Part shown: positions 1,996-32,907 of the stretch, in pieces
Position numbering within the stretch: position 1 is the first letter of the stretch
Layout: every line of letters begins with the position of its first letter
DNA from: an uncultured Verrucomicrobiota bacterium
Lineage (GTDB): Bacteria > Verrucomicrobiota > Kiritimatiellia > RFP12 > UBA1067
Direction of reading: 5' to 3'
DNA: 35,336 nucleotides
NCBI GenBank assembly: GCA_946543025.1
Contig: CAMNLN010000001.1
Location: 1 to 35,336, forward strand
Notes under the pieces: model-generated
Told to the model about the DNA's origin: nothing
The model's database searches: none
The model's input: the letters and a program-made list of their open reading frames with translations, nothing else
Translations under genes and position numbers: made by a program

Positions 1996-4900
1996 TTATC
2001 TGACGATGACTTGCGTGCCGTTATGATAGACGCGTACCGTCACAGCCTCGGACGCGGTGTAGTTCGCGTCGTCCGCGTACGCGACCACGCGATAGACCGC
2101 ATCTTCCGGCACACCGGTCGGCACATCGATCCAAGCGGACGTCGCGCCCGGCACAGGACGCCCATTGCGGAACCACTGGTAGCGCGTCGCGCCCGGCGCG
2201 AAGGCGTGGAGCGAAAGCGCTCCGCCCTTTCGGACGATCCCGGATACCGGTTGTTCCGTAAACACGGGGCCGTTGCCCTTCGACGCCACCGCAGGGCGCA
2301 CGAACACGTACAGGTCGCTCGTCGTGAAGCTCGCGCCGTTCGCGGCCGTCGTCCAGTCCTTCTCTGCGTCCGCCTGCTCGCTGCGGTTGCCGATGCCGAG
2401 CGAGGCATAGCGCAACGTCGTCGGTCCCGCGGACGCTCCCGTACGGGATACGGAGAGAATCACCTGGCTTTGCTGGTAGTTGTGTACCTGCAGGCAGCCG
2501 TAGCCCGGCTTGGTGGTGAAGGTCCACGAGTCGCCCCAGTCATAGACGTTGTTGCCGTCGGGGTTGGCATTGGGAATCCCCTTGGAATTTGCCTGACTGA
2601 AGTCGTGCCAGCAGAACTCGATGTTGCCGTCCGGGAAGTCGCCCGGCGTCACATGGAGAGTGCCGTCCGACCGGTAGGCGCGCACGGAGAGGTTCGTCAC
2701 GTACTCCTGGAAGTCGTTGACGCGGCGCTTCGTCGGCAAGCCGATCTTCGAGAGATCGTCCGTGAAGGCGTCCATCGACGCCCACGCCCATTGCTCCAGG
2801 CCGTCCGTGCCGACGAGGTGCAGCAAATAGGCCACACGGTCGAAGGCCATGTTTCCGAAGCGCGACTCGTCCACCGCATACGGCGCGTCCGTCCACGTGT
2901 AGCTGAACGTCGTGTGCGGGATATGCAGCAAGTTCACGAGCGTGTAGTCGCCCGCTTCCGGCACGGCCTCCGCCGTGAGGAACGCGGGAAGCGGGTCGGC
3001 GGCGGCGGTCGTGAAGGACGTGCTCGCCGTCTTCGCCTCGCCGCCGGACGTGTAGGCGCACTGGAGCGTGTAGCTCGTGGAGGCGGCGAGCGGCTCGGCG
3101 AGCGTCAGCACCACCTCGCGCGGATCGACCGGGGACGCGACGACGTTGGCCACGGCCGCGTTGCCCGACGTGAACGTCCATGCCGAAGGATCGCGCAGTT
3201 GCGGCGGCACGGTCTCGTCGAACGCCACGCTCACCTTCGTCCGGTCCAGGCTCGCGACGGCGTGGAAGATCGCGGACGGCGTCGTCTCGAACGCCACGAA
3301 CACGTAGAGGCGGCGCACGGCGTACTGGGGGGCCTTGCCGGTCTGCGTCCAGTCCTGGTTGGCCGCCGTCGAGTAGTTGCCGATGCCGATGTCCGTGTTG
3401 CCGTCGGAGTGGCGGAGCCGGCTGATGGAGATCAGCGTCTGCGCCTCGTTGTAGTTGTGGATCTGCAGGCAGCTGTAGCCGGCGGCCGTCTCGGAACTCG
3501 GCAAGTCGTCGAAGTCGTACCGGCCCGTGTTCGCGCCGATGTTGAGGCTGTTGCCCTTGCCGTACGACGAGAAGAAGAACTCGATGTTGCCGTCCGCGTA
3601 CCGGCCCTGCTTCACGCCGCTCACGTTGGAGGCGACGTCGAGGTTCGAGACGAACCGCTTGATGTTGCCGTTCGTGGCGAAGGAGTAGGAGGCGAGATCG
3701 TCCGTGAAGCCGTCGAACGCCGCCCAGCACCAGGTCGTCGTGGGCGTGGCGTTGGTCGTCGTCAGCTCCAGGTAGTATCCCACGCGCGCGACGTGCCGGC
3801 CGGCGTAGCGCGCGCGGTTGTCGACCGTATGCGCGGCCGCGTACTGCGCCGCGTTGTGGCTGTTGAACGGCGTGGGCACGTCGATCTGGTAGAGGAGCGT
3901 GTAGTCCTTCGCCTGCGGCACGTTCGCGGCCACGTGCGCGGGCACGTCCGGCTTCGGGCGTACGAGGACGTGGAGCCTCATGCTGGAGAAGTTGTCGGCG
4001 TTGTCGTATGCCTGTGTCCAGTCCGGGTTGATCGCGCCGGTCGCAGTGCGGTTCGCGCGGTACTGCGTGTTGTTGCCGATGCCGGCGCCGACCGGCTGGC
4101 CTGTGTTGCTGCCGTTGAAGTTGCTGATGCCGAAGATCGTCTGCCGGTTCGTCACGTTGTGCACCTGCATGCAGGCGTGCCACGTGGTCGCGCCGCCCGA
4201 CAAGCTGTCGCCCCAGTCGCAGGTGCCCGCCGCGTACGGGATGTGGTTGTCGTTCGCGCCGCCGTAGTTGTGCGGCCAGAACTCGAGGAATCCGCCGTCC
4301 ATCCCCGTGCCGTTCACGATGCCGTCCACGTTTGAGAACACGTCCTGGTTCGTCACCCACTTCTGCCCGAAGCCGATGCTGTCGTTCACCGGCACGCCGA
4401 ACTTCGAGAGGTCGTCCGTCCAGGCGTCGAACGAGACCCACACGAAGTTCGTCCCCGTCCCGTCCTTCTTCACCTGCTCGAAGTAGTACGCCACGCGCTC
4501 GGCGCCGTCCGGCAGGCTCCGCGTCGCGTCCATGTAGTACGGCACGCGGCTGCGCCAGTTCACGCCCTTCGTAACCGGCACGTTCAGGGAGTAGAGCGGC
4601 ACGTAGCCCGCGCGGAGCTCCGCCGGCACATGCTCGGCGACGCCCGCGGGAAGCGGACGCGCGAGCGTCAGGGTGGCGCCTGCCGCCATCGGCGTGGCGC
4701 CGTTCGCCGCCGCCTTCACGCGCGCGCCGTCCACCGTCAGATTGAAGTTGTCCGACGCCACGGCCGCCACATGGACGTGGACGAGCGAGAAGTCGACGCC
4801 GTCGCGCTCGACGGAAGTCACGTAGCCGGACGAGACGGAGAACGCCGCATCGAGGCCGTCCAGCAGCACGTCCACCGAGAACTTCACGTCCACCACCGTC

Positions 4901-6678
4901 CCGTCGTTCCCCAATGTCGGCGTGGCCGAGACGATCTCCGGCGCGGCCGTGGCGGAAGTTTCCGGCAGCACGTACACCTGGAGGTGTCGCAGGGAATACT
5001 GCCCCGCGTTGTACGTCTGGGTCCAGTCCCAGCCCTTGTTGTTCGCGTTGTAGTGCGGCCCGATGCCCAGCTCGGTCGCGTCGTTCTTTTGGAACCTGTT
5101 GTAGGTGAAAATGCAGCTGTTCGTGGTGCGGGCCGTATCGTGCACCTGCATCGAGCCGTATTCTCCGCTCGTCGGCTTGTCGTCCATGTCGTACACGGCG
5201 AGCGCCCCTTCAAGGCCGCGCGTGACAGTCCCCTCGAAGCTCACCGGCCAGAACTCGATGTTGCCGACGGCGATCGTCTCGTTCGTGCGGATGTTCGGCA
5301 CGTTGCTCCACACGCGCAGGTTCGTCACGTCCTTCTGGAACTGCCAGGCCACCGGTACGCCCACGCGCGCGGCGTCGTTCGTGAACGCGTCCATCGACAC
5401 CCACACGTACTGCATCGGTTCGCCCGCCTTCTGCAGCTCCATGTAGTAGGCCACGCGGCTGAACGCGCCGATCTTCGCCGCGTCGTCCACGGTGTAGGGC
5501 ACGGGAACCCTCCCGAAGTTGCCCTTGGCCGGGATGTCGAGGTCGTAGATGAGGCGGTAGCTGTTGAACTCCTCCGGCGGCACGTAGCGGTACGCGCCCT
5601 GCGGAAACACGCCGGGGATCGTCAGCGTCGCGTCGGCGTAAAGCGCCTTGCCGCCCGTCGCGTTGCGCACGCCGCCCTGCTTCGCCGTCACCGTGACGGG
5701 CGTGTAGTACTCGCCGGACGGGAACACGAGCATGGCCGTGCGCTGGTCGGCGGAGAGCGTGATGGTCGGCACGGCTTCCGTCCCCGACACGGTCCAGTTC
5801 GCCGCGTCGCAGGCCGTCGTGGCCGTGACCTTCTGGTTAAACGTGAAGTTGATCGCAAACGCGTCTTCGCCCACAGTTTCCGTCGTCGTCTGCACCACGG
5901 CAAGGTCGTTTTCCGTCGCGAAGTTCGCGGGGTCGGGGACGATGCTCGTGACGGCGCTCACCCAGGCGTTCGCCATGTTCGTGTAGCCCACGTCGTTGGG
6001 ATGGACTGTGTCGGCGATCTGGTCCCAGTCCGACACGGCGGCATGCATGTCGAGGAAATACGCGCCCTGCCCCTTTGCCTGCTGGCCGGCGACGATGCCG
6101 GGGATGGCGGGGTTGAACGCGTTCGTGATCGCGGCGTACTTCCAGTTGTCCTCCGTGTCGCCCGCATTTGTGTAGCGCCGCATGAGCGTGGTCACAACCA
6201 CCTTGGCGGATGGCTGGCATTCGTGGATGCGGTCGAGGAGACGCACAAGGCGGTTCGTCGCTTGGCCGCGGAACGTCGGCTCCCCATCGCCTAGGTCGTT
6301 CGTGCCGATGTGGAGGAGGATCACGTGCGGGTCGTCGATTTGCGCGAAGAAGCTCTGGATGTTCTCGTAGATGCCCTGGGTGGCGTTCGAGATCTTCCAG
6401 CTGCTGTGGCCTTCGTGGTCGCTGTCGGCGAGGAAGGGATCCTCCTTGCCGTAGTTGTCCGTCTGCGTGCCCACGTAGTCCACGTTGTAGCCGAGGTTCG
6501 TGAGCGCCACGTAGAGCGGCGCACGATAGCCGTTGCCGCGTACGGACTGCGAGCCGTGCGTAATCGAGTCACCGAGCGGCATGATGCGTAGCACGGGGTT
6601 GTCCGCCGCCGCGCCAAAGGCCAAGCTTGTCGCCAGCGCGACGATTCCCGCGGCTGCCACACGCACAATCTGTCTCAT
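1996..6678 (-). CDS. Giant secreted multidomain SGNH/GDSL esterase: signal peptide, SGNH, Ig-like spacers, 4 x unassigned module, C-terminal Ig-like domain
   Basis: 1560-aa ORF with AAGGAG SD 7 nt upstream. Signal peptide MRQIVRVAAAGIVALATSLAFGAAA. aa 28-245 carry the SGNH blocks MPLGDSITHG, GHSSW, LHIGTNDL, DTVHPND. Ig-like spacers at about aa 250-360, 575-675, 1133-1225. C-terminal Ig-like domain aa 1470-1552 (RYQWFRNG). Confidence 0.92.
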   Translation of the reverse strand: MRQIVRVAAAGIVALATSLAFGAAADNPVLRIMPLGDSITHGSQSVRGNGYRAPLYVALTNLGYNVDYVGTQTDNYGKEDPFLADSDHEGHSSWKISNATQGIYENIQSFFAQIDDPHVILLHIGTNDLGDGEPTFRGQATNRLVRLLDRIHECQPSAKVVVTTLMRRYTNAGDTEDNWKYAAITNAFNPAIPGIVAGQQAKGQGAYFLDMHAAVSDWDQIADTVHPNDVGYTNMANAWVSAVTSIVPDPANFATENDLAVVQTTTETVGEDAFAINFTFNQKVTATTACDAANWTVSGTEAVPTITLSADQRTAMLVFPSGEYYTPVTVTAKQGGVRNATGGKALYADATLTIPGVFPQGAYRYVPPEEFNSYRLIYDLDIPAKGNFGRVPVPYTVDDAAKIGAFSRVAYYMELQKAGEPMQYVWVSMDAFTNDAARVGVPVAWQFQKDVTNLRVWSNVPNIRTNETIAVGNIEFWPVSFEGTVTRGLEGALAVYDMDDKPTSGEYGSMQVHDTARTTNSCIFTYNRFQKNDATELGIGPHYNANNKGWDWTQTYNAGQYSLRHLQVYVLPETSATAAPEIVSATPTLGNDGTVVDVKFSVDVLLDGLDAAFSVSSGYVTSVERDGVDFSLVHVHVAAVASDNFNLTVDGARVKAAANGATPMAAGATLTLARPLPAGVAEHVPAELRAGYVPLYSLNVPVTKGVNWRSRVPYYMDATRSLPDGAERVAYYFEQVKKDGTGTNFVWVSFDAWTDDLSKFGVPVNDSIGFGQKWVTNQDVFSNVDGIVNGTGMDGGFLEFWPHNYGGANDNHIPYAAGTCDWGDSLSGGATTWHACMQVHNVTNRQTIFGISNFNGSNTGQPVGAGIGNNTQYRANRTATGAINPDWTQAYDNADNFSSMRLHVLVRPKPDVPAHVAANVPQAKDYTLLYQIDVPTPFNSHNAAQYAAAHTVDNRARYAGRHVARVGYYLELTTTNATPTTTWCWAAFDGFTDDLASYSFATNGNIKRFVSNLDVASNVSGVKQGRYADGNIEFFFSSYGKGNSLNIGANTGRYDFDDLPSSETAAGYSCLQIHNYNEAQTLISISRLRHSDGNTDIGIGNYSTAANQDWTQTGKAPQYAVRRLYVFVAFETTPSAIFHAVASLDRTKVSVAFDETVPPQLRDPSAWTFTSGNAAVANVVASPVDPREVVLTLAEPLAASTSYTLQCAYTSGGEAKTASTSFTTAAADPLPAFLTAEAVPEAGDYTLVNLLHIPHTTFSYTWTDAPYAVDESRFGNMAFDRVAYLLHLVGTDGLEQWAWASMDAFTDDLSKIGLPTKRRVNDFQEYVTNLSVRAYRSDGTLHVTPGDFPDGNIEFCWHDFSQANSKGIPNANPDGNNVYDWGDSWTFTTKPGYGCLQVHNYQQSQVILSVSRTGASAGPTTLRYASLGIGNRSEQADAEKDWTTAANGASFTTSDLYVFVRPAVASKGNGPVFTEQPVSGIVRKGGALSLHAFAPGATRYQWFRNGRPVPGATSAWIDVPTGVPEDAVYRVVAYADDANYTASEAVTVRVYHNGTQVIVR
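2293..5592 (-). repeat. Four protein-level copies of an unassigned ~210-225-aa module inside the SGNH gene (approx nt 4966-5592, 3955-4632, 3289-3924, 2293-2967)
   Basis: Each copy shares YxL[IVL]Y/NxLx[IV]P, RV[AG]Y[YL][MFL]E/H[LQ], W[VCA]W[VA]S[MF]DA[FW]T[ND]D, G[NF][IL]EF[WFC], [YH][GSA][SC][ML]Q[VI]H[ND], GIG[NP], and a terminal LxV[YLF]V strand. The DNA copies are diverged, not recent duplicates. Confidence 0.8.
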
Positions 6679-6739
6679 GTCTTTGCTCCTTCTTCCTTCA
6701 ACCTACAATGTCTAGGCGAACACATTTTGACTTGGCAAC

Positions 6740-6768
6740 AACATACCACATCCTCGTATTTTTCGCAA
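6740..6768 (-). promoter_or_regulatory. Sigma70-type promoter for the SGNH-MFS-phosphoesterase unit
   Basis: Minus strand reads TTGCGA (6763-6768), a 17-nt spacer ending TGg, then TATGTT (6740-6745). This predicts a leader of about 55 nt before ATG 6678. Confidence 0.5.
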
Positions 6769-6812
6769 GAACGCCGTGCCGACAGGCGAAATCCCCGCAC
6801 ATCGCGGATTTG

Positions 6813-6821
6813 TGGTAAACT
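6813..6821 (+). promoter_or_regulatory. Extended -10 element upstream of the small C3H-repeat gene
   Basis: TGgTAAACT at 6813-6821. There is no good -35. ATG lies 44 nt downstream. Confidence 0.3.
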
Positions 6822-6864
6822 AGGCGCGGGTTGCCCGCGAAAGGATGCCCGAAAGGAACACGAC

Positions 6865-7287
6865 ATGAAGAAACTGACGATCACGTTCGCCGCCGGCCTG
6901 ATGGCCGCCATGGCCTTCGCCGCGCAGTGCGCGGGTACGAACCAGGACGGCAATCGCTGCAAGCGCGACGCCGCCGAAGGCAGCAAGTACTGCATCGGCC
7001 ATGCCCACCAGGCGAAGCCGTCCGCACAGTCCAAGGAGAAGGACGACGGACACTGCTGGGCCGTCACCGCGGCCGGTACGCGCTGCAAGCACAAGAAAGT
7101 CGGCGAAACCGACTATTGCGCCCAGCACGCCGCCGACAAGAAGCCCGCCAAGCCCGTGGACCAGTGCTGCGCCATGACCTGGGAAGGTACGCGCTGCACG
7201 CGCAAGCCGGACGAAGGCTACCGCTACTGCTCGCAGCACCGCAAGTCGGCCGCCGCAGACAAAAAGCCCGCCCCCGCGAAAAAGTAG
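6865..7287 (+). CDS. Small basic signal-peptide protein with three tandem C-x9-C-x10-C-x2-H (WRC-like C3H) repeats
   Basis: ATG 6865 preceded by AAGGAA 7 nt upstream; the track start at 6727 is an upstream extension. MKKLTITFAAGLMAAMAFAA signal. Repeats are CAGTNQDGNRCKRDAAEGSKYCIGH (6928-7002), CWAVTAAGTRCKHKKVGETDYCAQH (7054-7128) and CCAMTWEGTRCTRKPDEGYRYCSQH (7165-7239), separated by K/P/A-rich linkers. Confidence 0.75.
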   Translation: MKKLTITFAAGLMAAMAFAAQCAGTNQDGNRCKRDAAEGSKYCIGHAHQAKPSAQSKEKDDGHCWAVTAAGTRCKHKKVGETDYCAQHAADKKPAKPVDQCCAMTWEGTRCTRKPDEGYRYCSQHRKSAAADKKPAPAKK

Positions 7288-7321
7288 CCCCCGCGTTGCC
7301 CTTGCGATCGGCGCGCGCCTG

Positions 7322-8731
7322 TCACGCCTGTCCGGCCGCCTGGCACGCGGCAGCCTTGCCCACGGCCTCGCCGATCGCCACGGAGCTTCCCGTCACGCGA
7401 TAGCTCGCGTGCGCGTAGAAGTCGCCCGAAATGCAGCGCCCCGCCATGTACAGGTTGTCCGCATCCTTCGCGCGGCAGGCCCGCAGGGGGATTTGGAACG
7501 GGCGGAACCTGACGCCGAAATTCTGTCCGGCGGCACGTATGTCGTTCGCTTTCTTGTCGAGGCCGTGGATGTCGATGCCGAAGTAGGACGTCGTCACGGC
7601 GTCAGGGAATGTCGCTCCCGCCGTCACGTCGTCGCGCGTCACCGTGTAGCGGCCGTGCAGGCGCCGCGAATCGCGCTGGCCGATTTGCTCGGCGGTCGCC
7701 GCCACGCGAAACCCTTTCCACGGCCCGCCTAGCCGCGCCAGCCCGGCAGCGAGGGCCAGCACCTCCTTGCGTGCGCGCAGTGTCGCGTCCGAGACGGCCT
7801 GTGCATCGTCCACGCGCAGCTTGTACTCGTGGTTCGCCATGAAGCAGAACAGGTTGCGGTGGAAGCGGAAAAGCGTCGGATCGCCGTAGCTCGGCTCCAG
7901 CCCGGCGCGACGCAGCTCGGCCTTGAGCCTGTGGCTGGCGACGATGTGATGGCATGTCGGCTTTCCCGTCTCAGGGTTGTCGAGGAAGGTCCACATCGCC
8001 GGCTCGTTCGAGACGAACCCGCCGCGCGCCACGGCGTCGCCGTCATCCACCACCACCAGCGCGTTCAGCGTGGCAGGCTGCCCCCAGCCCTCCGGGCCGA
8101 ATCCCATGTCGAATCCGCAGCCAGCGCGCGCTCCCAAGTCGCCGTCGCCCGTACAGTCCACGAACGTCTTCGCCCGCCAGGCCTGCCGCCCGCTCTTCGA
8201 CTCGGTGACGACCGTCTCGACGTTCCGCCCCGACGCATCCCGATACGCCGCCGTCACCGGGCTCTGCAACGTCACGCGCACCCCGGCCTCTGCGCACATG
8301 TCCTCGCAGACGGCCTTCATGTACTCGGGTTCGTAGACCCAGTCCTTGTCGAGGCCACGCTTGTAGTAGCGCATCCCCTCCTCGCCGGGCCTGTCCACCA
8401 CGCGTGCGCCGTAGGCGTCCAGGCGACGGATAATCTCCCAGCCGGTCTCGGACTTGTTGAAGTCGAAGATGTACGTGAGCAACCCAGCCGTCCAGACGCC
8501 GCCCAGACAGCCCTGCAACTCCAAGATCCGCACCTTCGCGCCGGCGCGAGCGGCCGCGACAGCGGCGGCGACGCCCGCCGGTCCGCCGCCGGCGACAATG
8601 ACGTCCGCCCAGTCGTCAACGGGCAGATCGCGCGCCGGCTCGACGAACTTGCCGCCGTCCGCGACAGTACGCCCGGCGGCGACCGCACCCGTTGCCACGG
8701 CACCCCCGAAAAATCCTCGTCGCGTCAACAT
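7322..8731 (-). CDS. Tat-exported FAD-dependent oxidoreductase (FAD_oxidored / PF12831-like)
   Basis: MLTRRGFFGGAVATGAVAAG twin-arginine signal. Dinucleotide-binding motif DVIVAGGGPAGVAAAVAAARAGAKVRILE. 469 aa. Confidence 0.85.
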   Translation of the reverse strand: MLTRRGFFGGAVATGAVAAGRTVADGGKFVEPARDLPVDDWADVIVAGGGPAGVAAAVAAARAGAKVRILELQGCLGGVWTAGLLTYIFDFNKSETGWEIIRRLDAYGARVVDRPGEEGMRYYKRGLDKDWVYEPEYMKAVCEDMCAEAGVRVTLQSPVTAAYRDASGRNVETVVTESKSGRQAWRAKTFVDCTGDGDLGARAGCGFDMGFGPEGWGQPATLNALVVVDDGDAVARGGFVSNEPAMWTFLDNPETGKPTCHHIVASHRLKAELRRAGLEPSYGDPTLFRFHRNLFCFMANHEYKLRVDDAQAVSDATLRARKEVLALAAGLARLGGPWKGFRVAATAEQIGQRDSRRLHGRYTVTRDDVTAGATFPDAVTTSYFGIDIHGLDKKANDIRAAGQNFGVRFRPFQIPLRACRAKDADNLYMAGRCISGDFYAHASYRVTGSSVAIGEAVGKAAACQAAGQA

Positions 8732-8746: not shown

Positions 8747-9316
8747 TCAACCGATGATCGCGCGCGCGGCGGCCAAGGCGCGCCCGCGATGCGAAATAGC
8801 GTTCTTCTCGTCAGACGAGAGTTCGGCGAACGAACGGTCATAGCCGTCCGGCACGAAGAGCGGGTCGTAGCCGAATCCGCCCGCGCCGGACGGCGCTTCG
8901 GCAATGCGTCCGGGACAATGCCCTTCCACCACGTGTTCCGTGCCGTCAGGGGCCACAAGAACGATCGCGCAGGTAAAGCGCGCGCGGCGGTCAGCCACGC
9001 CGGAGAGGTTCTTCAGGAGCAGCGCGTTGTTGGCGGGCGTATCGCCGTCGCGTCCCGCGTAGCGGGCGGAGCGGACGCCCGGCTCGCCGCCGAGCGCGAT
9101 TACCTCCAGGCCGGAGTCGTCCGCCATCACCCATGACCCGGGATGGCGAGGCGCGATGGCACGCGCCTTGATGCGGGCGTTGCCAACGAAGGTCTCGGCC
9201 GTTTCCTCCGCGCCGGAGTCCTCGCCGCGGATGTCCCATCCGGGCAGAATCTGTCCGATCTCGCGAAGCTTGTGCGCGTTGTGCGTGGCGACGATTAGCG
9301 TGTTCATGTCGGTCAT
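8747..9316 (-). CDS. rdgB: Non-canonical purine NTP pyrophosphatase RdgB/HAM1
   Basis: LIVATHNAHKLREI, DDSGLEV, FGYDPLF and ISHRGRA motifs. ATG 9314-9316 overlaps the TGA (9313-9315) of the upstream GH2 gene; ATG at 9307 is an alternative. The track start at 9367 is an extension into the GH2 gene. Confidence 0.9.
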   Translation of the reverse strand: MTDMNTLIVATHNAHKLREIGQILPGWDIRGEDSGAEETAETFVGNARIKARAIAPRHPGSWVMADDSGLEVIALGGEPGVRSARYAGRDGDTPANNALLLKNLSGVADRRARFTCAIVLVAPDGTEHVVEGHCPGRIAEAPSGAGGFGYDPLFVPDGYDRSFAELSSDEKNAISHRGRALAAARAIIG

Positions 9317-11706
9317 TCGTGACGCCAGAGGACGGTGTCCTTCATCCACTCCTTCACCTCGGACCACTTGAACGGCGGCTCGCCGTAAAGGAAGTGGTTG
9401 CGATGCGTCTCGCCGTCGGCGGAATACTCGATCTCGATCAGGCCCTGGCCGGAGAACGAAATTGTGCCGAGCTGCGTCTTGGAGTTGGCCGCCACCTCGT
9501 AGTCGCGGTCAAGAAGCACCTTGCCGGAAACCTTGTCGCGGTACGTGGCGTGGCCCTTCACCGGATAGCGGCGGTCGTTCACGGCCCAGGCCACATGGTC
9601 GTCGCCCAACATCGCCAGCTGGTCGTGCTGCACGGCCTTGAGCGCGTAGTAGGCCGGCTTCTTGCCGCCGTACCAGTCCACCACGGCGTCGGAAATCTGC
9701 GGCCAGCCGTCGCGCACGTTCCACCAGATGAGGCCGTTGAAACGCGTGAACTTGCGCGAGCGGAACATCTCGCAGAACGTCTTCATCGCCTCGGCCTGGA
9801 CGGTCTGAGACTGCTCGACGAACGTCTCAAGGTCGCGCGCGACGCTCCCGAACATGATCTTTGTCTGGTTCGTCATGAGATTGTTGCGCGTGGCGTGGCG
9901 CATCGCGCCGGGCGTCACGGAAGCGTTGGCCGCCTTGATCTGCCACTCGTCGTTCCAGTGGAAATCGCGGTACGGGTCCTCGCCCGTGATCTCCTTCCAC
10001 GGGTAGAGCGCATCGCGCGTCATCATCTTCTTCAACGACTCGACGTTCGGGCAGCCATGGTAGCCCATCTCGCTCGCGAACCAGCAGGGGCTGTTCGTAT
10101 AGTACGGCACCTTGTAGTAGGCGCGCGCCCCCCAGAGGTGATCCTCGCTCGGACGCGCCTTGCCAGCCACGACGTCGGGCGAATAGTACGGCGACGAAGG
10201 CAGATACGGGCGCGTAAGGTCGTATTCGAAAAGCACGTCGGGAATCGTCCGGCGCGAGTTGCGGTCCATGTTCGGGTCGCGGGCGAGCTTATGGCCCACG
10301 AACCAGCGGAACGCGCCGTCGTTCTCGTTGTTTCCGCTCCAGAGCGCGATGGACGGGTGATTGCGGTGGCGCAGGACGATCGACAGAACCTCCTCGCGCG
10401 TCGCTCGGGCGTAGTCGTCGTCCTGCGGAAACACGCCGCAGCCGGTCATGAAGTCCTGCCACACCATCACGCCGTTCGCGTCGCACCAGTCGAAGAATTC
10501 GTCCGGCTCGTACACGCCGCCGCCCCACACGCGGACCATATTGCAGTTGAGGTCGGCCCACATCTCGAGCGTGGGAATCAGGTGCTGCATGTCGCGCCCG
10601 TGGAAGCTGTCGAGCGGCACCCAGTTGGAGCCGCGCACGTAGATCGGTTCGCCATTCACCTTGAAGAGGAACTGTCCGGGACGGTCCGGACCATACACGT
10701 CGTCGCGCACGAGCTCGATGGTGCGCACGCCGATCTTGCGCGCATCTCGCGCGAGCACCGTGCCGTCCGCCCCCACGATCTCCGCCACCGCGTCATAGAG
10801 CGCCGCCTCGCCGCTGCCGCGCGGCCACCAGAGATCGGCGTTGGAGAGCGTGAAGTCCACCATCGGATGGTACGTGAACACGGGGATATCGGCCTTCGCG
10901 CATTCCTTGCCGCCGCGCGAGAGCGTACAGCGCAGGCGAGCTTTGTCGAGAACGGAGAACGGCGCCTCGAGGCGCGAGCGGAACTTGAAGTCGGCGCGGC
11001 GCTTCGCCACGTCGAGGTTCTTGATCATCCACACGCATTCGCGAAGCCGCACGGGATCCTCCAGTTCCAGCGACACGTCCCGCCACAGACCCTGCGCGAA
11101 CACGCGCGGAAAGATGTCCCAGCCGCCCATGTGCGCCGCCTTGCGGTAGCGCTCGCCGTCCGCGCCCGGCTCGCTCGGGCCTCCCATCTCGCCCACGGTG
11201 GCGTATTGCGCGTCGAGCAGCACGGGACGCAACAGCACCTGCACGACGTTCTCGCCCTCCTTCAGGCGGCGCGTCACGTCGAAGCGGCGCTCGATGAGCA
11301 TGTTCTCGGACTCGCCGATCTTCTCGCCGTTGAGGAACACGTCCGCGAGCGTGTCGATTCCGCCGAACACGAGCACGGCGTGCGCCCCGGACGCCACGTC
11401 CACGGCCGGCGCGTCGAACGCCTTCGTGTAGAGCCACTGGTAACCCTCGTAGGGACGGAGCTTCAGCACGTTGAGGCCGATCTCCATCGGCGGCAGGATG
11501 CCCGCGTTCACGAGGTCGAGCTCGCAGTTGCCCGGCACCGTCGCCTTCACCGTCTTGAACGGCACCTTCAGCGGCAGCGCGCGTACCGCGCCGGCATCCG
11601 GCTGGGGAAAATAGTCCAGCGTCCATTCGCCGTTCAGCGAAACCGAGGACGCGGCCATCGCGCCCAAGGCGAACGCGCAGGCGACGCCCGTCAGCAGTTC
11701 CTTCAT
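9313..11706 (-). CDS. Secreted GH2 family glycosidase, beta-mannosidase-like
   Basis: Start at ATG 11704-11706 (MKELLTGVACAFALGAMAASS signal). GH2 beta-mannosidase hallmarks WWPRGSGEAALY, NMVRVWGGGVYE, acid/base LWSGNNEN and nucleophile FASEMGYHG. Confidence 0.88.
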   Translation of the reverse strand: MKELLTGVACAFALGAMAASSVSLNGEWTLDYFPQPDAGAVRALPLKVPFKTVKATVPGNCELDLVNAGILPPMEIGLNVLKLRPYEGYQWLYTKAFDAPAVDVASGAHAVLVFGGIDTLADVFLNGEKIGESENMLIERRFDVTRRLKEGENVVQVLLRPVLLDAQYATVGEMGGPSEPGADGERYRKAAHMGGWDIFPRVFAQGLWRDVSLELEDPVRLRECVWMIKNLDVAKRRADFKFRSRLEAPFSVLDKARLRCTLSRGGKECAKADIPVFTYHPMVDFTLSNADLWWPRGSGEAALYDAVAEIVGADGTVLARDARKIGVRTIELVRDDVYGPDRPGQFLFKVNGEPIYVRGSNWVPLDSFHGRDMQHLIPTLEMWADLNCNMVRVWGGGVYEPDEFFDWCDANGVMVWQDFMTGCGVFPQDDDYARATREEVLSIVLRHRNHPSIALWSGNNENDGAFRWFVGHKLARDPNMDRNSRRTIPDVLFEYDLTRPYLPSSPYYSPDVVAGKARPSEDHLWGARAYYKVPYYTNSPCWFASEMGYHGCPNVESLKKMMTRDALYPWKEITGEDPYRDFHWNDEWQIKAANASVTPGAMRHATRNNLMTNQTKIMFGSVARDLETFVEQSQTVQAEAMKTFCEMFRSRKFTRFNGLIWWNVRDGWPQISDAVVDWYGGKKPAYYALKAVQHDQLAMLGDDHVAWAVNDRRYPVKGHATYRDKVSGKVLLDRDYEVAANSKTQLGTISFSGQGLIEIEYSADGETHRNHFLYGEPPFKWSEVKEWMKDTVLWRHE

Positions 11707-23047: not shown

Positions 23048-23899
23048 TTACCCTTCTTTGAGGGTTCCGGTCAAGGCGAGAAGTACGTCTTCTTCCGTGA
23101 CCACCCCCAGCTCCGCGCCAGTCGTCTCGTCGCACACCACTGCCACCGGACTGCGGTTTCGCCGCATGAGCGGCAGGATGTCGTCGCCGTGCGTCATCGC
23201 CGGGATGCAGAAATGTCCCGCCTTTCCGGGGCGGCGGTATTCCTTCAGCTCCGCGAGGTTCTTCTCGGTGGCCGCGTGCATGAGGTCCTTCGCAAACGTC
23301 GCCTGCAGCATCAGCACGCGGTCGATCAGCCGCCGCTCAAACTGCGTGAGGCGCGTCGCGTCGTGGCGGTCGGCCACCAGCATCCGCAGGCCGTCGCGCG
23401 AGACGCCCAGCCGCAGGGAACGCGGCTGCCGCACACGGAAGACGACGCGCACGAACGCCGAGAACGCCGCCACCGGCACCGCCAGGATCGTCGCCGCCAC
23501 GCGATAGGGTTGCGCGGCCAGCAAGGAACGGCGGAGCGGGCGCGAAGCGAAGATCAGCTTCGGCAGGTACTCGCCCAGGAACAGCATCAGCACGGCCGCT
23601 ACGAGAGACCATACCGACCGCGCGGCCGGCATGTTCCAGAAGAGGCGCGCGCCAAGCGCCGCCGTCGCGGTGGAAAACAGCACGGACGCCAGGTTGTTCC
23701 CCACGAGCAGCGTCGTCAGCACGCGCGACATGTCGCCCAGGATCCGAGCCAGACGCTTCGCGCGCGGCGCGGACTGGCGTACGAGCGAGAGAAGCCGAAC
23801 GCGCGGCACGGAGAGGAAGCCCGTCTCCACGCCCGCGAAGAATCCAGCCGCCGCCACGGAAACGCCCATGAGGAGAAAAAGGATCGCCGTCTTCATCAT
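23048..23899 (-). CDS. CNNM/DUF21 transmembrane domain protein with reduced CBS region (CorB/GldE-like paralogue 2)
   Basis: FFAGVETGFLSV, LLVGNNLASV and LGEYLPKLIF are DUF21 signatures, followed by a short cytosolic CBS-like tail. ATGA overlap with the upstream paralogue at 23896-23899. Confidence 0.8.
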   Translation of the reverse strand: MMKTAILFLLMGVSVAAAGFFAGVETGFLSVPRVRLLSLVRQSAPRAKRLARILGDMSRVLTTLLVGNNLASVLFSTATAALGARLFWNMPAARSVWSLVAAVLMLFLGEYLPKLIFASRPLRRSLLAAQPYRVAATILAVPVAAFSAFVRVVFRVRQPRSLRLGVSRDGLRMLVADRHDATRLTQFERRLIDRVLMLQATFAKDLMHAATEKNLAELKEYRRPGKAGHFCIPAMTHGDDILPLMRRNRSPVAVVCDETTGAELGVVTEEDVLLALTGTLKEG

Positions 23900-24870
23900 C
23901 GGTCGTCGTCCTCCTCGTCGTCGATCACGGGCTTGACGATCAGCTCAAGGATGTCCCCGCGCGTGATAATGCCCGCCGTACCGCCCCAGCGATCCTCCAC
24001 CAGGGCGATGCGCCGCCCCGTCTTCATGAAGAGGACAAGCAGATCGTCGAGGCCCTGATGCTCCGAGACGCGCAGCGGCGTGTCCGTGGCCGCCGCCACA
24101 TCCCGCGCCGGATCCGCCAGAAGGCGTTCCGTATCTAGGAAACCCTCGATGTGGTCCATGTCGTGCCGGTAGACCGGCAGGAACGGATAGTCGGATTCCT
24201 CCGCAAGCCGCACCTTCTCGGCGTCGGGCAGCGTCGCCTCAACGCCTGTGAGCCGTACGCGCGGCGTCATCTCGTTGAGCGCATAGAGATCCGGGAGTCG
24301 CATCACGCCCTCCACCATCGATGCCTCCTCGCGGTCGAGCTCGCCCGTCGCCGCGGCAGATTCCACCACCGCCCGCAGCTCGTCGTCCGAGAGCGCGCGC
24401 CGCTCCCGCGCGAGCAGGTCGCCGAACACGCGCGAACCGGCCACCATCAGCACGGAGAACGGCTTGAGAACAACCCGCCAGAACAGCAGCATCCGCACGC
24501 AGAAAGCCGCCATCCTCTCCGCATGGCGCATCGCGTACTGCTTCGGCAGAATCTCGCCAAACACCAGCAAAAGGAGCGTGAACGTCGCCACCGACACCGC
24601 CGCCGTCCCCGTTTCCACGAACCGCAGCGTCAGCATGTAGCCGAGCGAGGCGATCGCGAAGTTGACGAGCGTGTTGCCCGCGAGGATCGTCGAGAGGATG
24701 CGCGCCGGCTCCTTCTGCCAGCCGCCGATCCGCCGGGCGACGGACGGCTTCACGCGCTCCAGCGCCTGCAGCTGGCGCGGCGTCAGCGAAAACAGCACCG
24801 TCTCCGCCGAGGAAAAAAACGCTGAGAGCGCGAAGAGGACGACCAGGACTGAAACGAGGGCTGCGACCAT
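23896..24870 (-). CDS. CNNM/DUF21 + CBS-pair protein (CorB/GldE-like paralogue 1), no CorC_HlyC domain
   Basis: FFSSAETVLFSL, ILAGNTLVNF and FGEILPKQYA (DUF21). CBS pair (VMRLPDLYALNEMTPR...GIITRGDILE). Acidic tail DDEEDDDR. Confidence 0.85.
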   Translation of the reverse strand: MVAALVSVLVVLFALSAFFSSAETVLFSLTPRQLQALERVKPSVARRIGGWQKEPARILSTILAGNTLVNFAIASLGYMLTLRFVETGTAAVSVATFTLLLLVFGEILPKQYAMRHAERMAAFCVRMLLFWRVVLKPFSVLMVAGSRVFGDLLARERRALSDDELRAVVESAAATGELDREEASMVEGVMRLPDLYALNEMTPRVRLTGVEATLPDAEKVRLAEESDYPFLPVYRHDMDHIEGFLDTERLLADPARDVAAATDTPLRVSEHQGLDDLLVLFMKTGRRIALVEDRWGGTAGIITRGDILELIVKPVIDDEEDDDR

Positions 24871-30559: not shown

Positions 30560-30922
30560 ATGAAGCTCGAACACGTCGGCTACAACGTCGCCGAGCCCCA
30601 GAAGCTCATGGACTGGTGGTGCGCGAACCTGGGATTCAAGCAGGTTCATCCCGCGTTCATCGTGGACTCCACCGGACAGATGGCCATCGAGTTCTACAAC
30701 AACCCGGCCGCGCCTGTCCCCGACTGGGCGAACATGTCGCCGCTCGCGATGCACATCGCGTTCCTGTCGGACGACGTCGACGCCGAGGCCAAGCGCCTTG
30801 TGGCCGCCGGCGCCACCTTGCTCGAGACCGTCCACAAGGACGGCTTCGACATGGTGATGCTGCGCGATCCGTTCGGCATGGCCATCCAATTCGTGAAACG
30901 TGGGAATCCCATCCTGCTGTGA
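30560..30922 (+). CDS. VOC (glyoxalase/bleomycin-resistance/dioxygenase) superfamily protein
   Basis: 120 aa. MKLEHVGYNVAEP...HIAFLSDDVD...MLRDPFGMAIQF shows the beta-alpha-beta-beta-beta pattern with His/Glu metal positions. Confidence 0.75.
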   Translation: MKLEHVGYNVAEPQKLMDWWCANLGFKQVHPAFIVDSTGQMAIEFYNNPAAPVPDWANMSPLAMHIAFLSDDVDAEAKRLVAAGATLLETVHKDGFDMVMLRDPFGMAIQFVKRGNPILL

Positions 30923-32907
30923 AAAGGATCCACTTCCAGGGAATAGGCGGCGTCGGCATGGCCGGCGTCGCTTTTCTTTTGAAGCGACGCGGCCACATGG
31001 TGACCGGCTGCGATAAATATGCCACGCCGCGTACCCGCTGGCTGGAACGGAACGACATCCCCGTCGCGGTCGGGCACTCCCCTTCCCACCTCGCCGGCAT
31101 CGACGAGCTTGTCGTCACGCCCGCCGTCCCGAAGGACGACCCCGAACTCGCCGCCGCGAAGGGTCTGTCCCCTCAGATCCGCATCCGCTACCGCGGAGAG
31201 GTCCTGGCGGAGATCGTGAACGCCTCCGACGGTATCGCCGTCTGCGGTACGCACGGCAAGACGACCACCGCCACGTTCACCGCCCGCCTGCTGAAGGCAC
31301 TGGGGACAGACCCTTCCTGGTGCATCGGCGGAGAGACCGGCGCGATGCCCGTCGCCAACGTGGGGACAGGCCCTTTCGTCGTCGAGGCGGACGAATCCGA
31401 CGGCACCTTGGCGCTCTACCGCGCGCATACGCTCGTCGTGACGAGCATGGACTATGACCATCCCGAGCACTTCAAGACCGTCGCCGAATATCGCGCCTGC
31501 TACGCCGCCGCCATGGACGCGGCGGAAGATGTGATCAAGGCGTGGGAACTCGACGCCGCCGACTGGCCCGAGCTCGACCGTCTCGTCGTCGGGCGGCACA
31601 ACGTGATGAACGCGCGCGCGGCCATCGAGGTGGCGCTTCGGCGCGGCTACTCCCGCGCCGCCATCGCCGCCGCCCTCCCGTCGGCTCTCGCCGAGCTCCC
31701 TGATCGTCGCTTCGAGCGCGTCTGGCCTCCGCGCGACGCGCAATCCTCAATCAATCTTCAATCCTCGATCGCGGTCTTCACCGACTACGCGCACCACCCC
31801 GCCGAGCTGAAGTGCGCGGTCGGCATGGCGACGGAACTGAAGCCCAAGCGACTCCGCGTCCTTTTCCAACCGCATCGCTACTCCCGCACGAAGGCACTCC
31901 TGAACGCGTTTCCCCCAGCTTTCGCCGAGGCGGACGAGGTGGTGCTGATACCGGTCTATCCTGCCTTCGAGGACCCCATCCCAGGCGGCGACATCGCCGA
32001 CCTCTACAAGTCTTTCCGAGAGGATTGCGCGCCCACGCGACCGCCAATCCTCGCCCGCAGCGCAACCGAAGCCTGGCGGCATGTCTTCCTTTCGGCCCAG
32101 CCGGGCGACCTGATCCTGCTCGCCGGCGCCGGCGACATCATCAACCTCGTTCCGCAAGTTCAACGCGATCTCGCGGTGCGGGACATTCGACAGCCGGTAT
32201 TCATGGAGCTTGCGCCCTATTCTTTCTTCCGTACCGGCGGCGTCACGCTTGGCGGCGGCGAACGCGTGATCGTCGGCATGGGCTCGAACACCTGGTTCAG
32301 CGACTGCACCAGCGACATTGAGATCGTCCGTGCGCCGACGGGCACGTCCGCCGCCCTTCCCGGCGCCTCCCTGCTCGCGACGCATCCGGACCTGGCGTTC
32401 ATGGCCGGCATCCCCGGCACGGTCGGCGGCTGGGCAAGGATGAACGCCGGCGCGTTCGGCGATTCTTTCGGCAACCACGTGGAATACGTGATCGCGGACG
32501 GCAAGAAGATTCCGCACGACGCATGCGGCTTCGGCTACCGAACGTCTGCCATCCAAGGGCTGATTACCGAAGTGGGATTGAAAGCCGCGATCCACGGCGC
32601 CCAGGACGAGAAAGCCGCCAAGGATTATCTCGCGCGGCGGAAGAAATTCCCGCCCCGCACCTGCGGCAGCGTGTTCAAGAACCCGTCGCCGGACACGCCC
32701 GCCGGCAAGCTGCTTGACGAGGCCGGAGCAAAGAGCCTGCGCGTGGGAGGGGCCTGCGTCTGGAGCGAACACGCGAACGTGATCGTAGCGGGCGAGGGTT
32801 GCACGTCCTCGGACATCCTTGCGCTTGCGCGCCTCATGGCGCGCGCGGTCTTTTTCCGTTCGGGCGTCCGCCTCGAACCCGAAATCCGCGGCCTCGAGGT
32901 CTGGTAG
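30919..32907 (+). CDS. murC-murB: Bifunctional MurC-MurB fusion (UDP-MurNAc--L-Ala ligase + UDP-N-acetylenolpyruvoylglucosamine reductase)
   Basis: GTG 30919 overlaps the VOC stop (GTGA). The N-terminal ~430 aa are MurC (IHFQGIGGVGMAGVA, GTHGKTTT, EADESDG, DYAHHPAE). The C-terminal ~235 aa are MurB (GMGSN, GIPGTVGGWARMNAGAFG, GYRTS, CGSVFKNP, AGKLLDEAGAKSLRVGGA, HANVIV). The track start at 30616 is an extension through the VOC gene in another frame. Confidence 0.88.
   Translation: MKRIHFQGIGGVGMAGVAFLLKRRGHMVTGCDKYATPRTRWLERNDIPVAVGHSPSHLAGIDELVVTPAVPKDDPELAAAKGLSPQIRIRYRGEVLAEIVNASDGIAVCGTHGKTTTATFTARLLKALGTDPSWCIGGETGAMPVANVGTGPFVVEADESDGTLALYRAHTLVVTSMDYDHPEHFKTVAEYRACYAAAMDAAEDVIKAWELDAADWPELDRLVVGRHNVMNARAAIEVALRRGYSRAAIAAALPSALAELPDRRFERVWPPRDAQSSINLQSSIAVFTDYAHHPAELKCAVGMATELKPKRLRVLFQPHRYSRTKALLNAFPPAFAEADEVVLIPVYPAFEDPIPGGDIADLYKSFREDCAPTRPPILARSATEAWRHVFLSAQPGDLILLAGAGDIINLVPQVQRDLAVRDIRQPVFMELAPYSFFRTGGVTLGGGERVIVGMGSNTWFSDCTSDIEIVRAPTGTSAALPGASLLATHPDLAFMAGIPGTVGGWARMNAGAFGDSFGNHVEYVIADGKKIPHDACGFGYRTSAIQGLITEVGLKAAIHGAQDEKAAKDYLARRKKFPPRTCGSVFKNPSPDTPAGKLLDEAGAKSLRVGGACVWSEHANVIVAGEGCTSSDILALARLMARAVFFRSGVRLEPEIRGLEVW

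Follow-up and report, generated by a model that had tools for sequence, protein, structure and literature searches.

The window analysed here, a 35,336-nt stretch of contig CAMNLN010000001.1 from an uncultured Verrucomicrobiota bacterium of the Kiritimatiellia, carries at nt 6865–7287 (+ strand, stop codon included) a gene for a 140-amino-acid (aa) precursor in which a predicted signal peptide is followed by three Cys3-His (C3H) units of identical spacing. The open reading frame (ORF) begins with an ATG at nt 6865 and runs for 140 codons to a stop at nt 7285–7287, and a Shine-Dalgarno-like AAAGGA (nt 6852–6857, +) was recognised from the sequence 7 nt 5' of the start codon. The ORF call agrees with the homologues and Pfam matches described below, and comparison with 11 relatives (Nei-Gojobori method) gave ratios of nonsynonymous to synonymous substitution (dN/dS) of 0.12–0.37, which indicate purifying selection and hence a real gene; the ORFs overlapping it in other frames are the usual by-products of a guanine-plus-cytosine (GC) content of 65%. 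No sigma-70-like promoter was found in nt 6500–7500 and no Rfam family or tRNA within the window, and the terminator-like matches inside the gene lie on the wrong strand. A mobile or viral origin was rejected, the gene being without relatives on IMG/VR contigs and its GC content being that of its flanks.

The C3H units

With its units numbered, the product reads MKKLTITFAAGLMAAMAFA (predicted signal peptide), then AQ-C22AGTNQDGNRC32KRDAAEGSKYC43IGH46 ... C64WAVTAAGTRC74KHKKVGETDYC85AQH88 ... C101CAMTWEGTRC111TRKPDEGYRYC122SQH125 ... KKPAPAKK. The mature protein is predicted to comprise 121 residues (13.2 kDa, pI 9.2), among them 24 Lys plus Arg and 14 Asp plus Glu, with a net charge of about +10. 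Its three copies of the motif C-x9-C-x10-C-x2-H start at C22, C64 and C101 (nt 6928, 7054 and 7165); they are the sole instances in a six-frame scan of the window, and two or more units appeared in none of 200,000 shuffles of the protein sequence. Defined by motif and alignment, the units are C22-x9-C32-x10-C43-x2-H46 (unit 1, nt 6928–7002, +), C64-x9-C74-x10-C85-x2-H88 (unit 2, nt 7054–7128, +) and C101-x9-C111-x10-C122-x2-H125 (unit 3, nt 7165–7239, +), with basic residues around the second Cys of each (RCKR, RCKHKK and RCTRKP, respectively). Linker 1 (residues 47–63, nt 7003–7053, +) is rich in K, P, A, S and E, ends in a conserved K-D-D-G and differs in length among homologues, its K/P/A/E repeats extending over about 13 to about 60 residues. 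Linker 2 (residues 89–100, nt 7129–7164, +) is fixed at 12 residues, and the motif starts of units 2 and 3 are 37 residues apart in all homologues as well as in two-unit exported relatives. The C-terminal tail (residues 126–140, nt 7240–7284, +) is Lys/Pro/Ala-rich, variable in length and missing from many homologues.

In an alignment of 43 family sequences, which spans 57–90% identity, all nine Cys, the three His and the residues of G-x-R-C and Y-C-x-x-H are invariant, as are G24, G29, R34, G62, W65, T68, G71, R73, D83, Y84, G108, Y121 and Q124. A tenth Cys in the window copy, C102, is not conserved and is replaced by Arg in most homologues. The odd number of Cys and the invariant His in each unit point to a predicted metal site rather than to disulfides; for the same reasons, a purely disulfide-stabilised fold, which the initial annotation had raised as a possibility, is unlikely.

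Predicted export

Residues 1–19 (MKKLTITFAAGLMAAMAFA, nt 6865–6921, +) form a predicted signal peptide with a signal peptidase (SPase) I cut between A19 and A20, as judged by the -3/-1 rule, the charge of the n-region and the length of the h-region. The precursor N-terminus consists of MKK, 16 uncharged residues and then A-F-A/A-Q-C (slash, predicted cut). Classical rule-based statistics were applied to the 113 homologues in which the first unit lies near the N-terminus. Position -1 is Ala in 107 of these and Gly in the other 6, position -3 is limited to A, T, V, S or G, and position -2 is occupied by bulky or charged residues (F, I, D, Y, N and others); Gln stands at +2 in every case, with the first Cys at +3. 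The mean charge of the first six residues is +1.8 and the uncharged core extends over 12–17 residues. By von Heijne's -3/-1 rule, the N-terminus is thus a standard Sec/SPase I signal for which cleavage is predicted, and residues 2–19 form a separate helix in the structure model (see below). A lipoprotein (SPase II) was also considered and rejected: the lipobox [LVI][ASTVI][GAS]C is unmatched, C22 being preceded by A-A-Q, and the invariant Gln directly before the first Cys excludes it. The 140-aa product with a Sec-type signal and three exactly spaced units, as first described for this gene, is borne out by the ORF, the motif scan and these signal statistics, and its Lys/Pro/Ala-rich linkers by the alignment.

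Homologues and their hosts

A search of 5.8 billion proteins at E ≤1e-3 returned 193 homologue clusters, either unlabelled or labelled 'hypothetical'. Among the best 120 of the 193 (P0005–P0120), nearly all are 112–180 aa long and 113 have exactly three units with identical spacing, so that the spacing on which the initial annotation had staked its proposal is conserved; the others are frameshifted fragments or natural two-unit forms lacking unit 1. When one genome per GTDB species was scanned, about 30 species-level metagenome-assembled genomes (MAGs) proved to carry the gene. Where labels are informative, these MAGs derive from cattle, goat, sheep and roe deer (rumen or gut) and bear the name Kiritimatiellae or, in looser usage, Lentisphaerae or Verrucomicrobia. 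Three rumen MAGs have two loci each (L017/L027, L014/L039 and L016/L040), one with the three-unit gene and one matching units 2 and 3 only; the second, shorter copy is consistent with an exported two-unit paralogue like P0134 and P0135. In Gemmatimonadales (L041, nt 6001–6210, and also L042–L044), a 69-aa protein has one N-terminal C3H unit and a C-terminal hydrophobic segment, without a signal peptide, and is presumably a cytoplasmic, tail-anchored version of the finger.

Domain models and predicted structure

The whole protein matched the Pfam family DUF5763 (PF19067) in three stretches with 40.5 bits (E 1.9e-10, cut-off 26.3; hmmscan). It also passed the cut-off of WRC (PF08879; 32.2 bits, cut-off 28.6), as the sum of three partial matches to profile positions 15–41 only, and that of zf-C3Hc3H (PF13891; 30.1 bits, cut-off 27), with residues 71–125 on positions 4–61 of 62. 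Among the 43 aligned members, DUF5763 is matched by all, zf-C3Hc3H by 40 and WRC by 39. Single units scored 18–22 bits on DUF5763 (unit 1, 21.0), and on WRC 22.7 bits for unit 1 and 12.7 bits or no match for units 2 and 3; since single units fall under every cut-off, the whole-protein scores are sums over repeats. The match of zf-C3Hc3H across units 2 and 3 fits their fixed 37-residue period and the confidently modelled linker 2. Precomputed annotation also gives PF26647 (zf_Tbcl_3). Sub-threshold NCBIfam matches to GvpO_arch_Nterm (44.3 bits, cut-off 52), HGG_STG and GcrA were set aside, as they show a similar unit and not membership; the first corresponds to the N-terminus of haloarchaeal GvpO. 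In Pfam and NCBIfam scans of the protein, no QLQ domain, nuclease family or other catalytic domain was matched, and the Pfam scan gave no helix-hairpin-helix at E values up to 10.

The likeness to plant WRC fingers proposed at the outset stands in part. The C-x9-C-x10-C-x2-H spacing is what we take to be the WRC consensus, the R-C...Y-C-x-x-H residues agree and the whole-protein score exceeds the cut-off, but DUF5763 is the better model, the WRC profile is covered only partly, single units score below its cut-off and the eponymous Trp is missing: the context of the second Cys is N-R-C, T-R-C and T-R-C, with Trp found elsewhere (C-W in unit 2, T-W in unit 3). The check suggested at that stage, a search with WRC and bacterial DUF models, thus returned all three families, and by its profile matches the protein belongs to the DUF5763 superfamily of C3H fingers and is a relative of WRC, not a member of the WRC family.

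An AlphaFold2 (AF2) model built on the family alignment had a mean predicted local distance difference test (pLDDT) score of 82.5. The three units scored 88–94 (unit 1, about 88–91; unit 2, 92–93) and linker 2 at least 90 throughout, with lower values for linker 1 (about 67) and the tail (52–81). Short strand bridges are predicted around the first two Cys of each unit, and a helix begins at C-x-x-H in units 1 and 3, with none in unit 2 (DSSP). In a library of predicted viral structures, the matches were multi-C3H proteins of Pithovirus and other giant viruses, several of them annotated as 'HNH endonuclease' or 'Zn-finger protein', and one phage 'WRC protein'.

Distant relatives and fusions to nucleases

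An exhaustive HMMER search with the family profile against 1.84 billion representatives gave 856 clusters at E ≤1e-3, of which 143 were at E ≤1e-10, and so supports the statement in the initial annotation that similar motifs occur in small uncharacterised bacterial proteins. The (9,10) spacing is kept in 584 of the 687 motif instances in relatives. Among the matches listed, 96 of 147 new proteins have a signal-like N-terminus, as do 75 of the 118 that lack the K-D-D-G linker motif, these counts being based on a crude hydropathy threshold and biased upward by a query profile that held the signal peptide. Many of the distant relatives are small, with a signal peptide and two to five units, and have low-GC, Bacteroidota-like sequences; P0466 and P0481, two small exported multi-unit proteins, are labelled Bacteroidota in NCBI.

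Other relatives carry the unit on predicted secreted nucleases. By Pfam scan, P0180 has a signal peptide, an Endonuclease_NS domain (residues 48–245) and three C3H units, while in P0206 a lipobox-like anchor is combined with three C3H units and Endonuclease_NS. At least one C3H motif lies C-terminal to the nuclease domain in 105 of the 120 best relatives of P0180, and 95 of those 105 have a signal-like N-terminus. The few named relatives of P0180 are called 'DNA/RNA non-specific endonuclease' (Bacteroidetes, Flavobacteriaceae) or 'endonuclease G'. A second nuclease type occurs in P0505, which has a signal peptide, an SNase domain (Pfam) and a C-terminal C-x9-C-x10-C-x2-H, DUF5763 being unscored on that single unit. 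When the units of the window family were aligned with those borne by nucleases (hhalign), the match was gapless and end to end (probability 98.1%, E 7e-14), where both sets had been cut with the same pattern and the ligand columns were therefore fixed; besides the ligands, the two sets share T, G, R/K, Y and Q-H. Relatives without predicted export are fused to HNH, GIY-YIG, T5orf172/MUG113, HMG box and DnaJ domains, and the related Pfam models WRC, zf-C3Hc3H, zf-primase and zf-TRM13_CCCH are described as DNA- or nucleic-acid-associated.

Two further features were observed in these proteins. P0491 and P0504 are exported and combine Ada_Zn_binding (PF02805, Pfam) with a C3H motif, on which DUF5763 scored 17.9 bits in P0491, below its cut-off, and not at all in P0504; the C-terminus of P0180 has an Ada-like 'YHRPNC...CKVC' segment. 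The Ada-type Cys4 zinc domain thus also recurs behind signal peptides, as a second module with Cys-ligated zinc. Separately, a short N-terminal motif, 'G(K/R)KV(I/L)L..DG(S/T)W.YADS', is present in P0247, P0265, P0295 and P0298–P0303, matches the start of DUF3157 and precedes both small exported C3H proteins and Endonuclease_NS-C3H nucleases.

Gene neighbourhood

The C3H gene is divergent from a gene for a 1560-aa exported SGNH protein (nt 1996–6678, -) and convergent with a PF12831 flavin adenine dinucleotide (FAD) oxidoreductase gene (nt 7322–8731, -), which stands between it and a Ham1-like gene (nt 8747–9367, -). The C3H gene is directly convergent with the Ham1-like gene in two close relatives (L009 and L012), and a PF12831 gene also lies downstream of the homologue in a more distant MAG (L001). 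Flanking genes of other homologues specify a histidine kinase and a PF12831 oxidoreductase (P0042), a response regulator and ArgJ (P0077), a beta-helix protein and YccF (P0065), and an epimerase and Ham1 (P0005, 90% identical). Neighbourhoods were compared at four loci with called genes and, by clustering ORFs of at least 120 aa within 4 kb, at 30 loci; no neighbour family recurred in more than 3 of the 30, and those three loci are closely related (Ham1-like gene downstream). The C3H gene therefore behaves as a monocistronic, free-standing unit. The initial annotation had placed it between the two halves of a 'phospho-glycan locus' with GDPD and SGNH genes; with homologues in unrelated neighbourhoods, and conservation lost even at 90% identity, a functional tie to that locus was dropped.

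Further along the window are genes for GH2, an M20 peptidase and a GDPD/LamG protein, and the remainder are envelope and housekeeping genes. In the 1560-aa protein, an N-terminal SGNH/GDSL domain is followed by four repeats of about 300 aa with 'W(V/A)S(M/F)DA(F/W)T(D/N)D' and 'C(M/L)Q(V/I)HN'; for these repeats, Pfam gave nothing but a sub-threshold match to Big_5 (21.2 bits, cut-off 23.6). A single 763-aa ORF at nt 30,616–32,907 (+) has MurC-like Mur ligase domains and a MurB C-terminal domain, an apparent MurC-MurB fusion, and at nt 23,048–24,870 (-) two tandem CNNM transmembrane-domain genes adjoin AsmA/DUF748-like and LolA-like genes. In L001, a goat-rumen Kiritimatiellae MAG, two adjoining CesT-family (type III secretion chaperone-like) genes (nt 1543–2605) lie about 7.5 kb upstream of the homologue.

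Proposed function and alternatives

We give a probability of roughly one half to the reading that the protein is a zinc-stabilised, basic and multivalent (trivalent), non-catalytic binder of periplasmic or extracellular nucleic acid. From the features above we infer export, zinc binding, a nucleic-acid ligand and a physiological role, as follows. The precursor would leave the cytoplasm via Sec and be cut between A19 and A20, and the mature protein would fold into three Cys3-His modules, each probably with one Zn2+. Units 2 and 3 would form a fixed, rigid double finger, with unit 1 on a flexible Lys-rich tether of lineage-specific length. The basic residues near the second Cys, together with the Lys/Pro/Ala linkers and tail, may then, in the periplasm or on the surface of the cell, provide multivalent, sequence-independent binding of extracellular DNA (eDNA) or RNA. 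Lacking a catalytic domain, the protein would not cut nucleic acid but capture, hold or coat it, and could serve in uptake, nutrient scavenging, degradation by other enzymes, protection or matrix building.

The case rests on the company that the unit keeps. Its fusion to nucleases with signal-like N-termini suggests that the module works outside the cytoplasm, and its presence on two unrelated secreted nuclease folds, the intracellular fusions to nuclease and DNA-binding domains and the DNA- or RNA-associated Pfam relatives suggest that its usual business is nucleic acid. The extracytoplasmic polyanion binder of the initial annotation, which had listed eDNA among several ligands, thus gains indirect support for eDNA from the secreted nucleases, but the tie to a glycan locus is unsupported.

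The case has been put that the unit keeps company with nucleases; also in favour are the conserved signal peptide, the invariant Cys and His ligands, the basic composition of the mature protein, the exported proteins with Ada_Zn_binding, the gapless alignment with nuclease-borne units and the giant-virus structural matches. Several observations weigh against this reading. Besides the upward bias of the signal-like counts, exported units are also joined, more rarely, to trypsin-like (Trypsin_2) and M48 peptidase (Peptidase_M48) domains. The nuclease fusions occur in Bacteroidota-like proteins and not in the Kiritimatiellae family itself, and no conserved neighbours hint at DNA uptake or degradation. 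A Foldseek search of the model against the PDB gave no match, and PDB sequence profile searches with the whole protein and with single units returned nothing or chance matches to single-chain antibody fragments (scFv) and KpsC. No paper on DUF5763 was found in the literature open to searching, and Cys-ligated zinc sites are rare outside the cytoplasm.

More broadly, we suggest tentatively, and with less assurance than for the window protein, that exported DUF5763/WRC-type Cys3-His fingers may be a widespread, so far undescribed class of extracytoplasmic nucleic-acid-binding modules in Bacteroidota and the Planctomycetes-Verrucomicrobia-Chlamydiae (PVC) group. They would act as accessory domains that give secreted nucleases substrate affinity and, when standing alone, as ComEA-like non-catalytic receptors of eDNA or RNA that serve in uptake, scavenging or the building of a matrix.

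The main rival is a general binder of polyanions or of the envelope, which would anchor to sulfated or phosphorylated polysaccharide, lipopolysaccharide (LPS) or capsule, the stand-alone protein being a matrix or envelope component. Because exported units also sit on trypsin-like and M48 peptidases, enzymes with no action on nucleic acids, anionic polymers in a broader sense could be the ligand, and a basic mature protein with Lys-rich linkers among exported SGNH, GDPD and GH2 neighbours would suit this. Yet the neighbourhood is not conserved, the exported fusion partners are overwhelmingly nucleases, and the related models and the fusions outside the exported set all point to nucleic acids, so that we consider a general polyanion binder doubtful.

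It is quite unlikely that the protein handles zinc or another metal outside the cytoplasm, its three high-affinity Cys3His sites acting as a periplasmic buffer, scavenger or chaperone in a zinc-poor rumen. That a 13-kDa exported protein has three invariant C3H sites, and is encoded by a gene that stands alone without partners, would agree with such a role. However, conservation is as strong at the non-ligand surface residues (T, G, R/K, Y and Q) as at the ligands, which is expected of a binding surface rather than of a metal store; the unit serves elsewhere as an accessory domain of enzymes, and no metal transporter or regulator adjoins the gene at the four loci with called genes.

A disulfide-knotted secreted peptide (antimicrobial, signalling or effector), in which the WRC-like spacing is incidental or a relic, would also be small, basic, Cys-rich and exported, and the ten Cys of the window copy are an even number; the replacement of C102 by Arg in most homologues leaves nine, however, and with a His invariant in each unit, homology to zinc-finger families and an anaerobic rumen habitat, we regard this explanation as highly improbable. 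Least likely of all, and very much so, is a cytoplasmic DNA-binding regulator whose hydrophobic helix is a membrane anchor or the result of a mis-called start: although most known zinc fingers are cytoplasmic and the Gemmatimonadales relative, which lacks a signal peptide, has its C3H unit joined to a membrane anchor at the C-terminus, the conserved A-x-A/A-Q-C, positive n-region and 12–17-residue h-region are what a cleaved signal has, no Met follows from which a shorter product could start, and the unit is found on Endonuclease_NS and SNase nucleases with signal-like N-termini.

Comparison with known systems and significance

The reading as a binder of extracytoplasmic nucleic acid can be set beside several known systems. 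Nearest is DUF5763, listed in Pfam as a family of unknown function, which includes the C-terminal units of secreted Bacteroidota Endonuclease_NS nucleases (for example P0286, P0392 and P0180); the C-x9-C-x10-C-x2-H unit, its tandem arrangement and predicted export are shared, whereas the window protein lacks a catalytic domain, belongs to a Kiritimatiellae host and combines a double finger of units 2 and 3 with a tethered unit 1. The WRC domain (PF08879) of plant GRF proteins, a basic, putatively DNA-binding C3H finger, has the same Cys/His spacing and R-C...Y-C-x-x-H residues, but the window protein lacks the Trp before R-C and the QLQ domain, has three copies rather than one, and is bacterial and exported where GRF is eukaryotic and nuclear. 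Units 2 and 3 span the zf-C3Hc3H model of the KANSL2 and INO80D double finger and share its fixed inter-finger distance, yet those proteins are large nuclear subunits of chromatin complexes and the window protein is a 13-kDa exported bacterial one. The plant GRF WRC and KANSL2/INO80D fingers are assumed to bind DNA; no solved structure for them or for DUF5763 was detectable by sequence searches of the PDB. Literature searches for 'zf-C3Hc3H' or 'WRC domain' with bacteria returned plant or chromatin surveys only.

ComEA-type receptors, the periplasmic DNA receptors of competence systems, bind DNA by a helix-hairpin-helix. The likeness is one of functional analogy only, namely small size, an N-terminal export or anchor signal and a proposed sequence-independent DNA-binding module; the window protein has no helix-hairpin-helix match and no adjacent competence genes, and a DNA-uptake role for it is speculative. 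Exported Ada_Zn_binding (PF02805) is likewise a Cys-ligated zinc module behind signal peptides and co-occurs with C3H units in P0491, P0504 and P0180, but has another fold and Cys4 ligands and is not present in the window protein.

The window protein is, then, an exported, stand-alone, triple variant of a known finger family, and the nuclease link is a moderately surprising lead rather than a new kind of system. No earlier description of a link between this C3H finger and secreted nucleases seems to exist, and a systematic classification of His-Me finger nucleases makes no mention of a C3H or WRC accessory domain. With the unit present behind signal peptides and on secreted nucleases of two unrelated kinds, the entire family acquires a specific function that can be tested. 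If the proposal is true, Cys-ligated zinc sites would function routinely outside the cytoplasm, which raises the biochemical question of how such sites are assembled and kept reduced there. The finding points to a so far unrecognised set of proteins that bind nucleic acid outside the cell in bacteria of the gut, the rumen and the environment, and may be relevant to eDNA turnover, the biofilm matrix and DNA uptake.

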